Sequence record: PQ666542
From: Shigella phage sb4
Direction: 5' to 3' (one strand)
DNA length: 64,000 nucleotides
Shown one piece after another: positions 2,496 to 9,170 of this stretch. The first letter of the stretch is position 1. Every line of letters starts with the position of its first letter. Made by a program: the position numbers and the translations under genes. The notes beneath the pieces are model-generated. The model did no database searches. It saw only the letters and a program-made list of their open reading frames with translations, and was not told where the DNA came from.

Positions 2496-2969
2496 TTATT
2501 TGAATGATTTGACGTACTGAATAGAGCCTTTGCTATTCACGAAAGCGATTTTACCATTTTTGTTATACATGGTAGCAGTACGCTGATAACCATAAGTTTG
2601 TTTACCAGATTGATAACCAACTAATGCAAAATTATCTTCGCCCAGTTTATTCTGTTTGGCGCGGATACGTTCATGACCGTGTGCCATAAGAACCTTAGCG
2701 TCGCCAGTTGCAATGGATCTACGAGTTTTTTCATCTTCAACTGTAATAACAAAGTCGTCAAATGAATCAAATTTAGCGTGAGATTTATTATACAGTTTTC
2801 CATCTACTGCATAATTATATCCCTGTACATCCATCTCAACTTCTGTACCATCATCCAATACAGCAGTGATTTTTTGACCTTTTTATAATTTCAAAAGGTC
2901 AGTAAAAGATTCAGCAATAATTTGAGAATTAATAGCTGCTTCAGTGATAAATTCTTGATATGTTTTCAT
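2496..2969 (-). pseudogene. Internal protein (IP) family gene with capsid-targeting N-terminus, interrupted by TAA at 2883-2885
   Basis: ATG at 2969 with AAGGA upstream; N-terminus MKTYQEFITEA matches T4 IP targeting sequence; codon 29 is TAA, then same frame continues into track ORF 2496..2858. Confidence 0.6.
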
Positions 2970-2978
2970 GTGTTTCCT

Positions 2979-3395
2979 TTAAATGTAAATATTTTTACCG
3001 TAGTATTTATACCAGTATGGCTTCATTAAAATTTTTTCATCGAGTCGTTGTTTGCTCAATTTAATATCTGATTTGCATGGATTATAATAATTTTTACATT
3101 CTGCTGGAATATCGCTGATGTCAGGAACTTCAGTATATTTTATAATGAACCCACGTTTTAAGCATTCCGTTATAATGTCTGATTGACGCTTTCGCAAAAA
3201 TTTTAACTTATCGTAAAAGAACGTAACATGACCAGAGCCTAAAATAAACTCGGAAGATATTTTAAAATCTTTAACCCGTTTACCATTTGCAACATGTTTA
3301 CGAACTATACCAAAAACACGCGGCAGTTCACGGTATTCTGCGATTAAATGTTGATCAGCAAGTTCAGATACTAAAGTCAAATTAATACGAGTAAT
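2979..3395 (-). pseudogene. denV: Endonuclease V (pyrimidine dimer glycosylase) with start codon ATT in place of ATG
   Basis: Translation [29 protein letters not shown] matches T4 DenV from residue 2; GGAGGG sits 5 nt upstream of ATT at 3395-3393; no in-frame ATG. Confidence 0.8.
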
Positions 3396-3420
3396 TTTAT
3401 CCCTCCAAGTAACTGTGAAT

Positions 3421-3450
3421 ATACTATCAAAATTCTAGGAGAAAGTAAAC
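3421..3450 (-). promoter_or_regulatory. T4-type early promoter upstream of denV
   Basis: Minus GTTTAC at 3450-3445, 18 nt spacer, TAGTAT at 3426-3421. Confidence 0.4.
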
Positions 3451-3454
3451 AACT

Positions 3455-3949
3455 TTATAGATTTTTATACGCGTCCCAAGTTCCGGTTCTAAACGTTGCA
3501 ATAACTCGTTTTGCACGGTTAGGTGTTTGATTATACCATCTACTTTTAGCTAAGTTAACTGCTGCTTCATCCCAACGCTTTTGTTGGAGCATGCGTAAAG
3601 AATTAGTAAATCCTGCTACGCCGGTTTCCCCCATTTGGAAGACCATGTTAATCTATGCTCAGCGGCGAGCAGCATCAAGAGAATCATAAACTGGTTTTAA
3701 TTTAGCATTTCTCAGAATTCCGCGAACAGCAGCATCGACATCCTGATTAAAGAGTTTTTCAGCCTCATCTTTTGTAATTACACCATTGCAATTACGCCCA
3801 ATAGCTTTATCTAATTCAGATTTAGCAACACTTAGTGTTGGACTTTTAGTAAGCAAATGACCAATGCCAATAGTGTAATAACCTTCTGTGTCTTTATAGA
3901 TTTTAAGTCTAAGACCTTCATCTATACGTAACATTTCAAATATATTCAT
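3455..3949 (-). pseudogene. e: T4 lysozyme (endolysin) interrupted by TGA at codon 97 and TAG at codon 99
   Basis: 164-codon frame matches T4 lysozyme; stops at 3659-3661 (T4 has Cys) and 3653-3655 (T4 has Leu); track splits it into 3659..3949 and 3455..3646. Confidence 0.9.
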
Positions 3950-3962
3950 AATACCTCCTAAG

Positions 3963-3983
3963 TATTTATAGAAGGTATTTATA
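3963..3983 (-). promoter_or_regulatory. Late promoter boxes (TATAAATA, two copies) for e
   Basis: Reverse complement TATAAATA at 3963-3970 and 3976-3983, just upstream of e start 3949. Confidence 0.5.
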
Positions 3984-3985
3984 AA

Positions 3986-4441
3986 TTAAAAGAGGCTGTT
4001 CATTATTCGGTAAAGTGAAGGGCCCATCACATATTGCCACTGAGTACGAGGAATAAGAGCAAAAGCATCCATCTCTGGAATCATAACGCCATCTTTATTT
4101 TCAAAATAAGACTCGCAATGGCAATTTCTGAACATCTCATGCTCTACTGGAATCGTATAATAAAATAACTGTAAGTCTTTATTACTAGAATATTTAAATA
4201 CACCTAGGTATTCTAGATGGTCTGGATTATAATTATTAAAACCAGTCTCTTCTGAGCATTCTCTTCGTGCTGCATCTAGTGCGCTTAAATCAGAATTTTC
4301 TACACGGCCCTTTTGAATATCCCAGCGATGTGCCATCATTCCAGGATTACGAGAACCAGTAACTCGTCCCATAAATAAATCTTTATCTTCTGTCATAAAG
4401 ATAATACCAGCTGATAGTGTTTTCATTTTAATTTCCTGCAT
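3986..4441 (-). CDS. nudE: Nudix hydrolase NudE
   Basis: Nudix box RRECSEETGF; 151 aa as in T4; start may be the second ATG at 4426. Confidence 0.8.
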   Translation of the reverse strand: MQEIKMKTLSAGIIFMTEDKDLFMGRVTGSRNPGMMAHRWDIQKGRVENSDLSALDAARRECSEETGFNNYNPDHLEYLGVFKYSSNKDLQLFYYTIPVEHEMFRNCHCESYFENKDGVMIPEMDAFALIPRTQWQYVMGPSLYRIMNSLF

Positions 4442-7473: not shown

Positions 7474-7503
7474 ATAATATCTCAATCATGAGCCTATGTA
7501 AAC
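7474..7503 (-). promoter_or_regulatory. T4-type early promoter with stem-loop around the -10
   Basis: Minus GTTTAC at 7503-7498, 18 nt spacer, TATTAT; inverted repeat AGGCTCAT/ATGAGCCT around the -10. Confidence 0.45.
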
Positions 7504-7821
7504 TTATTTCATATTATTGAAATATTCTTCTGCGATTTCGTCGTTATCGTGGTAAACTTTAGAAGACAGTTTAACATAACCTTCTGCTGTGAACATGTTA
7601 ATCACAACCTTTACAGTATACCACTGTCCGTCTTCATTACCCATTACTGCGTAAGTTTCAAACATCGGATGGTCAGGACCGATAACTTTAATATCATTCA
7701 CTGTACGACCGAAATCTTCTGAAACGCATTTCATAAAGAAGTTGAACAGTTCGCCGTAATTATCCATTTCATTCTCCAAGTTGTTTTTCTGTATCAGTAG
7801 TTGATAGTTGTATAGTACCAT
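7504..7821 (-). CDS. Hypothetical protein; likely start at MDNYGELF (7767)
   Basis: Track ORF 105 aa; early promoter at 7812-7841 overlaps the first 18 codons. Confidence 0.4.
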   Translation of the reverse strand: MVLYNYQLLIQKNNLENEMDNYGELFNFFMKCVSEDFGRTVNDIKVIGPDHPMFETYAVMGNEDGQWYTVKVVINMFTAEGYVKLSSKVYHDNDEIAEEYFNNMK

Positions 7822-7841
7822 GGAAGAACAGGGATGTAAAC
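7812..7841 (-). promoter_or_regulatory. T4-type early promoter
   Basis: Minus GTTTAC at 7841-7836, 18 nt spacer, TACTAT at 7817-7812. Confidence 0.4.
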
Positions 7842-7971
7842 CGTTTTGTGAAAAATTTTTTAAAAATTTTTAGGGAATTCTAGGGCAGGGAGGGGCAATT
7901 AAAAGATAGGATAATATATTATAAAGGGTATAAACTAAATGATGCCTAGAGAGGTCCAGAAAGGCCTAGAT

Positions 7972-7999
7972 ACCAAAAAGCCCTATCATTTAGATAGGG
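7972..7999 (-). terminator. Hairpin terminator after IP gene 8008..8571
   Basis: CCCTATC/GATAGGG stem followed by T-run on minus strand. Confidence 0.45.
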
Positions 8000-8007
8000 A
8001 TTTAAAA

Positions 8008-8571
8008 TTATTTGCCTAGTTTAGTTATTATAGCTTCGGCAGCAGCTTTTAGCTTAGATGCGGTGTTAATACGATTTTTAATTTCAGTATACGCATCGCC
8101 AAGAACATCAAGGCTATCAGAATAAACACTTACACTATTGCGTTCGCTATTTGAAATAGAACCTTTAGTTTTACGATCAAAATCGGTGTACACGTCTTGA
8201 AGATCGCGGGCTGCCTTCTTTGCATCATCCAATGCATCAAGAGCTTTATTCAAAGCATTAACGTATTTTTTAGTGTCGAACATATTCTTAGAAATTTTAA
8301 CAGGTGCACGTTCAGGAGTAGCTAATACAGATTTAGGAACCTGAGCGCCAGATGCCAATTTCTTAGAAATTTTGAAAAATGCTTTATTGAATTTATTTTC
8401 TTGACTCATTGTAAAAGAACTATTATCGATGTTGTACATTTCAATAGCTTTAGCTTTCCACTTAAGAAAATCGCCGCGGTCTTTTGGGTCCAATTGGAAG
8501 AATACTTTAGTAAGATCTGCTTCAGATGGTAATTTTGCTGCTTCGGTTAAAAATTCGGCATAGGTTTTCAT
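8008..8571 (-). CDS. Internal protein (IP) family, 187 aa, capsid-targeting N-terminus
   Basis: N-terminus MKTYAEFLTE then AAK fits T4 targeting sequence and gp21 L-x-E cleavage site. Confidence 0.65.
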   Translation of the reverse strand: MKTYAEFLTEAAKLPSEADLTKVFFQLDPKDRGDFLKWKAKAIEMYNIDNSSFTMSQENKFNKAFFKISKKLASGAQVPKSVLATPERAPVKISKNMFDTKKYVNALNKALDALDDAKKAARDLQDVYTDFDRKTKGSISNSERNSVSVYSDSLDVLGDAYTEIKNRINTASKLKAAAEAIITKLGK

Positions 8572-8663
8572 TTAAAATCCTTGAAATAATTTATCGGTTG
8601 GTTATTAATTATTTATTACTTTGTTACTATCCGTAGCAGCATTCTCTATGTGATTCAAACTAA

Positions 8664-8690
8664 AAAGCCCCAACCTTTCAGTCGGGGCTA
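8664..8690 (-). terminator. Rho-independent terminator after IP gene 8697..9170
   Basis: GCCCC/GGGGC hairpin then T-run on minus strand. Confidence 0.55.
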
Positions 8691-8696
8691 AGAATG

Positions 8697-9170
8697 TTAT
8701 TTGATTTGTTTAGCAGACCAAATGCGGTCTTTAATAATTTTTTGGATGTCTTCAACATACTCAAGAGAGTGAACATGTGGATTATCTTTGAAACTATAAG
8801 CACGGGCTAACTTTTGGCCTTCGGTTTTGATTACTAAAAGCTCTTTAAGGATAGCTTCATATTTAGAGATAATTCCTTTAACGATATTTTTTTCTTGTGC
8901 CGCTTTAGGATCTGCTTTAGGAGCAGGTTTACCCGAAGGCTTTGCAAAAGCAGCGCCAGTAGCAACTAAACTTTTCCAGGCCATACTAACTGCATTTCCC
9001 GTAAATCCTTCTGCTTTCATGTCGCGAGCAAATTGGAATCGTGATTCGTCAGAAGCATCTTTATAGGAATATTTACCCGCTGCAATGGCTGCTTTTGCGA
9101 CAGCTTGAATTTCGGTGCTAGATGCTTCATTTAACACCGCTTCATTTAAAAATTGAGCATATGATTTCAT
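8697..9170 (-). CDS. Internal protein (IP) family, 157 aa, capsid-targeting N-terminus
   Basis: N-terminus MKSYAQFLNE then AV; late promoter box 40 nt upstream. Confidence 0.65.
   Translation of the reverse strand: MKSYAQFLNEAVLNEASSTEIQAVAKAAIAAGKYSYKDASDESRFQFARDMKAEGFTGNAVSMAWKSLVATGAAFAKPSGKPAPKADPKAAQEKNIVKGIISKYEAILKELLVIKTEGQKLARAYSFKDNPHVHSLEYVEDIQKIIKDRIWSAKQIK

Follow-up and report, generated by a model that had tools for sequence, protein, structure and literature searches.

A 64,000-nt stretch of the Shigella phage sb4 genome (record PQ666542), referred to below as the window, carries four open reading frames (ORFs A to D) that are best explained, taken as a whole, as genes for internal proteins of the T4 type, a reading that we consider probable: Ip4 (ORF A, the IpIV of T2), Ip5 (ORF D) and an unnamed pair, ORFs B and C. 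Injected internal proteins are the front-line inhibitors of type IV restriction in T-even phages, and each newly assigned internal protein has so far revealed a new pair of enzyme and inhibitor. Ip4 and Ip5 had already been catalogued and screened; B and C, which occur in ~160 and ~500 sequenced phages, respectively, therapeutic and BASEL-collection isolates among them, are uncatalogued. Internal proteins delivered by a capsid-targeting sequence (CTS) are well known as a kind; B, linked here to a previously unremarked essentiality data point, looks less like an anti-defence accessory than a first-pass annotation of the window had supposed. The evidence is about evenly poised as to whether B, instead of serving strain-specific counter-defence, has a constitutive role, be it in the assembly of the head or prohead core or at the very start of infection, just after ejection. 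A more far-reaching proposal, put forward tentatively, is that B is the first indispensable internal protein of a T-even phage, a CTS-delivered and gp21-processed protein of ~20 kDa that is needed on Escherichia coli K-12 and that, with C, occupies a third locus. If true, an essential B would overturn the rule by which internal proteins count as dispensable accessories, and would bear on the engineering of T4-like phages, for CTS-based protein delivery as well as for genome minimisation.

Capsid-targeting leaders and predicted processing

The four ORFs were found where the first-pass annotation had placed them, all on the minus strand and all starting as it had claimed (Table 1). Its description of a set of internal-protein genes stands as far as the leaders are concerned, all four of which are real, and has to be qualified for the reading frames: A and D carry in-frame stops, which leaves B and C as the only intact frames. 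Scanning all six frames of the 64 kb with the pattern MK[ST][YF]x[EQ]F returned four matches, every one at the start of one of these ORFs, while mononucleotide shuffles averaged 0.015 matches and never exceeded 2. Synonymous codons vary among the leaders (ACA, ACC or ACT for Thr3, GCC or GCT for Ala5, GCA or GCG for Ala11), and conservation is consequently at the level of the peptide.

In the leader of IPIII, residues 4 and 7 (Tyr/Phe4 and Phe7) matter for targeting and Leu/Ile8 and Glu10 for processing; gp21 cleaves after L/I-x-E, the CTS directs its cargo into the gp22 scaffolding core, and the first 10 residues of IPIII are enough to package foreign proteins (PMC9026906). The targeting residues and a gp21 site were present in all four ORFs, in agreement with the earlier assignment of T4-type leaders with gp21 sites. 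In A, B and C the mapped positions read Y4, F7, L/I8 and E10, with Ala as the next residue, whereas D has F4 and F7 as in T4 IPI and copies the longer IPI leader. The predicted gp21 sites, with cleavage marked by a slash, are ITE/A in A, LTE/A in B, LNE/A twice in C and ITE/S at residues 13–15 in D. The mature products would measure 7.5–19.7 kDa with isoelectric points (pI) of 9.1–9.5, to be compared with 8–20 kDa and pI 9.0–9.65 for T4 IPI–III. An AGGA ribosome-binding site lies upstream of each of the four ORFs, and the T4 late-promoter consensus TATAAATA occurs at 23 sites in the window versus 9.8 expected. The prohead protease gp21 and the scaffolding-core proteins gp22, gp67 and gp68 are all encoded in the window as well (40654–42790), at 90–99% identity to those of Shigella phage pSs-1 and with no internal stops.

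By analogy with T4, the N-terminal CTS would bind the gp22 core during prohead assembly and the gp21 protease would cut after Glu10 (A, B and C) or Glu15 (D), so that small basic mature proteins would remain in the head with the DNA and be ejected into the next host. The predicted mature N-terminus of B lies at Ala11 (AAKLPSEADLTK); that of C would be AVLNEASSTEIQAVAK or, with cleavage at the second site, ASSTEIQAVAK.

The leaders, cleavage motifs, identities, locus anatomy and conservation were established here, whereas the essentiality data and the function of the CTS come from the literature and the packaging of B and C is an inference. Several observations speak against this assignment. 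No virion proteomics or N-terminal sequencing for B or C, from any phage, was found in the literature, and none of the database entries examined annotates either as a head protein; for Ip4 and Ip5, head-protein status was seen as annotation names only. No exact TATAAATA is present upstream of B, the closest sequence being AATAAATA. A Foldseek search of the C model against BFVD and the PDB returned only the protein itself or generic helical bundles, and the model of B is of low confidence and too weak for a fold search. Alternatively, B and C might not belong to the head at all and might work in the cytoplasm of the cell that makes them, their likeness to the CTS stemming from recombinational spread, between cassettes, of the 5′ ends of ip genes and their translation-initiation regions. 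In favour of this, no direct virion evidence was found for either protein, databases call both hypothetical throughout, and repeated regulatory elements that could mediate such shuffling bound their cassettes. Nevertheless, we regard this alternative as improbable: the four CTS positions mapped for function are preserved together with the Glu-Ala bond, although adjacent residues and the choice of synonymous codons vary, the leader is retained in the 29%-identical protein P0027 and in a Klebsiella-phage homologue of C, C has a consensus late promoter, both proteins are basic and of internal-protein size, and those first 10 IPIII residues package foreign proteins on their own.

The B–C pair and a homologue of B scored as essential

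Phage Bas37 (KarlGJung, MZ501089) carries homologues of B (bas37_0243, identical at 186 of 187 positions) and C (bas37_0244, 154/157) as well as Ip5 (bas37_0261). According to the supplement of the HIDEN-SEQ preprint, bas37_0243 was disrupted at only 1 of its 48 TA sites and is listed as Essential, whereas the genes flanking it were hit at 85–100% of sites and are non-essential. Likewise scored Non-essential were bas37_0244 (29/34 TA sites), Ip5 (18/18) and the T4 genes ipI (24/24), ipII (22/23) and ipIII (42/46) (bioRxiv 10.1101/2025.11.20.689424). The window genes contain 49 (B) and 34 (C) TA sites, compared with 48 and 34 in the Bas37 table. B was found in 164 phage records, each annotated as hypothetical and 163 of them at least 95% identical, and its ratio of non-synonymous to synonymous polymorphism (pN/pS) is ~0.05–0.1; B is under strong purifying selection. 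B is thus not hypervariable, contrary to the earlier picture of these loci, and together with the Essential score these figures are at odds with an anti-defence accessory that is dispensable and strain-specific.

The essentiality call nonetheless has to be read with several points that count against an indispensable B. It comes from a supplementary table, and bas37_0243 is not mentioned in the main text of the preprint (bioRxiv 10.1101/2025.11.20.689424). The call could be an effect of the method, and HIDEN-SEQ also calls six T4 genes essential contrary to older genetics. Moreover, T2, T4 and T6 grow without B, and T2 and T6 also without IPIII; B is therefore neither a general requirement nor a simple substitute for IPIII, and replacement of IPIII by B as a general rule was rejected, given that T2 and T6 lack both. 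If B is indeed an indispensable internal protein, its having gone unseen would be explained by the chance absence of this mobile cassette pair from T2, T4 and T6.

These observations could also be accommodated if all four proteins, B included, were dispensable, strain-specific inhibitors of type IV restriction, with the Essential call an artefact of transposon or Cas13a selection or a local insertion effect. All CTS proteins whose target is known (Ip1, Ip2, Ip3 and Bas37_0260) inhibit type IV restriction, and T2, T4 and T6 are fully viable without B. However, the depletion is gene-specific and sharp when set against both neighbouring genes, the near-invariance of B is unlike that of an arms-race inhibitor, and the library was made on K-12, where no defence against this phage is known. 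Polarity is unlikely as well, since the downstream genes e.8 to e.2 are non-essential. We consequently view this explanation as possible but doubtful, and a constitutive role for B as the better of the two.

B and C are 100% identical to gp150 and gp151 of pSs-1, respectively. All names read in their database clusters (151 members for B, 216 for C) are "hypothetical" or "uncharacterized", and the annotation of ime09 names Ip4 and Ip5 and leaves B and C unnamed. The two are placed outside the Ip1–10 series on account of their size and locus and because none of the sources consulted gives them an Ip name, a comparison that did not extend to the Ip6 and Ip10 sequences. Relatives of B retrieved by word-indexed search were all at least 88% identical, and an exhaustive HMMER search across 1.8 billion representatives yielded just one more, P0027, which is 29% identical, begins with the leader MITFNEFLNE/S and has the same layout as B. 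IMG/VR holds three B loci, too few for co-occurrence statistics. C is more widely distributed, being present in 511 phage records and reaching Mosigvirus-like phages at 72–74% identity; its N-terminal domain is 54–56% conserved in syntenic genes of T4-like phages of Klebsiella and Yersinia, where a CTS-like leader is kept (MKFKEFLAE/A in the Klebsiella-phage homologue).

The first-pass annotation had described the mature sequences as mutually unrelated. This is correct at the sequence level, BLASTP finding the leaders only, and is less clear for B and C, both of which match phrog_2280 (unknown function) over their full length and share a model architecture. The AlphaFold (AF2) models, with a predicted local distance difference test score (pLDDT) of 60 for B and 75 for C, begin with a leader helix and a three-helix N-terminal domain, which a disordered Pro/Lys/Ala linker connects to a long helical hairpin at the C-terminus. 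Comparison of mature B with mature C gave a shuffled Smith-Waterman Z of 0.6; hhalign E-values for the pair were 0.45 and 0.02. B and C may be paralogues, as PHROGs groups the two, but sequence comparison does not show it. Pfam searches with B yielded sub-threshold, coiled-coil-like matches only, and NCBIfam no match at all for B, C or D. In line with the earlier annotation, homology searches of the mature regions against T4 IPI, IPII and IPIII were without a match (E > 1 for mature A); PF11634 (IPI_T4) recognised T4 IPI (7e-54) and none of A–D. Homology of the mature regions of A–D to the T4 internal proteins was accordingly discarded. In C, a run of seven A at codon 93 (8887–8893, minus strand) lies at the end of the linker, and truncated forms of C comprising only the N-terminal domain, of 97, 111, 93 and 108 aa (P0063, P0017, P0019 and P0020), occur in both shifted frames in deposited genomes and metagenomes, owing either to sequencing errors in the homopolymer or to genuine slippage.

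Relative to T4, the window contains a 1,246-bp insertion (7970–9245) located exactly at the rnaC terminator, by which the T4 junction GGGGCTTTTTGGTATCT is split. A hairpin followed by a T-tract is present three times and bounds a 559-bp cassette holding C and a 687-bp cassette holding B. No gene lies between e.8 and the rnaC/tRNA region in T2, T4 or T6. Consequently, B and C do not reside in the hypervariable ip loci of T4, as had been proposed, but in a third internal-protein locus, located between e.8 and rnaC and unoccupied in all three phages. Of the two polymorphic ip loci, 57B–trna.4 and e–denV, D occupies the first, A adjoins denV on its other side, and B and C are in neither; such placement is typical of the class and not strictly required. 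The cassette layout agrees with what is known of modular exchange among ip genes. Promoter-early stem-loop (PeSL) elements are said to be mobile regulatory cassettes that mediate modular shuffling in T4-type genomes, and the B–C locus resembles them, by description only, in having single genes between repeated regulatory elements at indel junctions among related phages. It differs in that the repeat is a terminator hairpin with T-tract, followed by a late promoter in the case of C, whereas PeSL proper combines an early promoter with a stem-loop.

Ip4, Ip5 and anti-restriction

The 97% identity of ORF A to pSs-1 gp139 identifies it as Ip4, the pSs-1 allele being identical to T2 ipIV. This intact allele matched the Pfam family DUF7412 (PF24183) with an E-value of 5.7e-96 and 319 bits (cut-off 27) over positions 1–157 of 158. 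A further match was to phrog_3155, "internal virion protein", and the database names are Ip4, IpIV and "internal head protein 4". In NCBIfam none of the four ORFs scored above the curated cut-offs, A having two weak matches far below them. Kinship of A with IPII was considered on the strength of a weak BLAST match (5e-6) and rejected, as the match was lost without the leader (E 1.8). A is found next to denV, towards vs.8, whereas T4 ipII and ipIII lie between e and denV. In the window copy the frame of this ipIV gene is interrupted by a TAA at codon 29 (2883–2885), the result of a TA-to-AT swap relative to pSs-1.

ORF D belongs to phrog_3499 and bears the UniRef name Ip5 (Q38630_BPT6). Its pSs-1 allele is 100% identical to "ip5" of the RB15 record Z35082.1, where Ip9, Ip7 and Ip8 (90, 102 and 74 aa) are found too, while the window allele is 94% identical with one stop, a TGA at codon 52 (11553–11555). 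D is situated at the classical 57B–trna.4 locus, with its frame interrupted here, and is bordered by two ~70-nt early-promoter blocks. Such blocks were reportedly described in 1994 by Repoila and co-workers, from whose work the names Ip4 and Ip5 are also said to derive. A third and more diverged copy of the block (61%) was noted at 7801–7869 on the minus strand, just upstream of e.8.

Injected anti-restriction is, as the first-pass annotation held, an established function of the class: Ip1, Ip2 and Ip3 each inhibit a different GmrSD (PMC12373910), and Bas37_0260, a CTS protein of 77 aa, blocks McrBC (bioRxiv 10.1101/2025.11.20.689424), which extends the demonstrated targets of CTS proteins to type IV enzymes beyond GmrSD. 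Its view of A and D as unstudied factors did not survive. Expression of ip4–10 against 15 GmrSD groups gave no reproducible inhibition (PMC12373910), a result that weighs against an anti-GmrSD function. Owing to the Ip4 and Ip5 identities and this earlier screening, A and D are to be regarded as known, named and partly screened. Ip5 was also considered as the published McrBC inhibitor and ruled out, the inhibitor bas37_0260 being a 77-aa T6-type gene that is absent here, and Ip5 being bas37_0261.

Compared with T4 IPI–III, the four proteins share the CTS leader (of IPII/IPIII type in A, B and C, of IPI type in D), the L/I-x-E site, a small and basic mature region and the same part of the genome, denV–e–tRNA–57B. 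They differ in their dissimilar mature regions, in the B–C locus, empty in T4, and in that T4 ipI–III are dispensable in HIDEN-SEQ and the B homologue is not. Bas37_0260 (KarlGJung/T6) has the same class of leader and is encoded alongside 98–99% identical homologues of both B and C as well as the Ip5 gene; its similarity is, however, limited to the leader, and the ipI locus of the window holds Ip5 only.

For C, Ip4 and Ip5 a role in anti-restriction remains plausible, the functions of all four proteins being inferred. Judging from Ip1, Ip2, Ip3 and Bas37_0260, Ip4 and Ip5 may each block one specific type IV (modified-DNA-dependent) restriction enzyme, a proposal that for either protein could equally well prove right or wrong. 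C, dispensable in E. coli K-12 judging from its Bas37 homologue, is an anti-defence candidate with slightly less in its favour. Disruptions of Ip5 (bas37_0261) were four-fold depleted in the uropathogenic E. coli (UPEC) strain CFT073 (log2 fold change −2.09, q reported as 0), and those of the upstream gene 57B likewise (bioRxiv 10.1101/2025.11.20.689424). A separate observation concerns the e.6 homologue (6281–6874, minus strand; 197 aa, 100% identical to pSs-1 gp147), which corresponds by position and length to bas37_0240. Disruptions of bas37_0240 were ~100-fold depleted in UPEC CFT073 versus K-12 (log2 fold change −6.49, q reported as 0), as listed in the supplement and passed over in the text of the preprint (bioRxiv 10.1101/2025.11.20.689424); the e.6 homologue is possibly an unrecognised counter-defence or host-range gene.

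Sequence quality and other features of the window

The window derives from a T4-like phage (Tequatrovirus) and shares with pSs-1 98.0% identity over 1–12403 and 99.1% over 2400–9400. On the minus strand the gene order is gene 1, 57A, 57B, D, trna.4–.2, ten tRNA genes, rnaD/rnaC, C, B, e.8–e.2, nudE, e, denV, A and vs.8.

Comparison of every pSs-1 gene with the window revealed 33 nonsense codons of the substitution type in ~25 genes. Those affected include the essential genes 5, 6, 7, 10, 12, 13, 14, 15, 16, 24, 26, 27, 28 and 48 and, in addition, uvsW and rnlB, with stops for example at 483, 2885, 3655, 3661, 11555, 17404, 19480–19483, 20661, 26064, 31266, 45247, 46145–46769, 49616–50183, 55115 and 58234. 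The changes are mostly transversions, to T or A. The lysozyme gene e follows the same error pattern, Cys97 being changed from TGT to TGA (3659–3661) and Leu99 from TTG to TAG (3653–3655). The background divergence from pSs-1 is normal, with 904 of the 1,311 coding differences at third codon positions and a predominance of transitions that are mainly synonymous. The stops of A and D were found in no deposited phage, the best matches being 97–98% identical and intact.

No viable phage could carry all of these stops and none deposited does, and for this reason the interruptions of Ip4 and Ip5 are read as sequence errors, most likely, and not as gene loss. Real stops, with Ip4 and Ip5 lost by pseudogenisation, would agree with the sequence as given and with the dispensability of internal proteins in laboratory hosts. 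This is quite improbable in view of the nonsense codons in essential structural genes and lysozyme, their bias towards transversions against an otherwise normal background of mainly synonymous transitions, and the deposited phages without these stops. As the sequence appears to carry errors, any "pseudogene" in the window is to be distrusted. The sequences of B and C, in contrast, are clean, since 4465–9209 differs from pSs-1 at three positions only, all within 7841–7856.

Table 1. Positions of the internal-protein ORFs and associated features in the window (slash, predicted gp21 cleavage site)
Feature	Position	Strand	Leader or motif	Description
ORF A (Ip4)	2496–2969	−	MKTYQEFITE/A	Precursor 157 aa; mature 147 aa, 16.5 kDa, pI 9.1
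Late promoter	3004–3011	−	TATAAATA	35 nt upstream of the A ATG, within the 3′ end of denV
Lysozyme gene e (T4-type)	3455–3949	−		Two in-frame stops, leaving ORFs of 96 aa and 63 aa
Terminator hairpin, copy 3	7981–7999	−	Ends in GGGCTTTTTGG	Downstream edge of the B cassette; point of return to T4 sequence
ORF B (unnamed CTS protein)	8008–8571	−	MKTYAEFLTE/A	Intact; precursor 187 aa; mature 177 aa, 19.7 kDa, pI 9.5
Terminator hairpin, copy 2	8666–8689	−		90% identical to copy 1; boundary of the C and B cassettes
ORF C (unnamed CTS protein)	8697–9170	−	MKSYAQFLNE/A	Intact; second LNE/A site at residues 13–15; precursor 157 aa; mature 147 aa, 16.0 kDa, pI 9.5
Late promoter	9211–9218	−	TATAAATA	41 nt upstream of the C ATG
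Terminator hairpin, copy 1	9225–9248	−		rnaC terminator; upstream edge of the C cassette; T4 junction maps here
69-nt early-promoter block, second copy	11398–11466	−		Overlaps the 3′ end of D and runs downstream; 80% identical to the upstream copy
ORF D (Ip5)	11451–11708	−	MKTFKEFATKTTITES (IPI type); MKTFKEFATKTTITE/S	Precursor 85 aa; mature ~70 aa, 7.5 kDa, pI 9.2
69-nt conserved block, upstream copy	11728–11796	−	GTTTACA, 17 nt, TACTAT (11767–11739)	T4 early-type promoter upstream of D
Gene 21 (prohead protease)	41312–41950	+		Acts in trans; 99% identical to pSs-1 "head maturation protease", without internal stops
Gene 22 (scaffolding core protein)	41981–42790	+		

Further differences from the reference phages were observed outside the internal-protein genes. 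The tRNA cluster (9565–10396, minus strand) comprises ten genes (Arg, Asn, Tyr, Met, Thr, Ser, Pro, Gly, Leu and Gln), versus eight in T4, and is without the segB homing endonuclease inside it; in T6, Septu targets tRNA-Tyr (PMC13096335). Two genes are shorter than in pSs-1 while remaining in frame, namely the dNMP kinase gene (gene 1, 12478–13191) by 18 nt and the prohead-core gene 67 (40654–40887) by 24 nt. Finally, in T6 (AP018814, 2490–3507) lysozyme e directly follows regB, and vs.3–vs.8, denV and the ipII/ipIII block are missing; this gap spans a block present in both T4 and the window, which marks the region as plastic.

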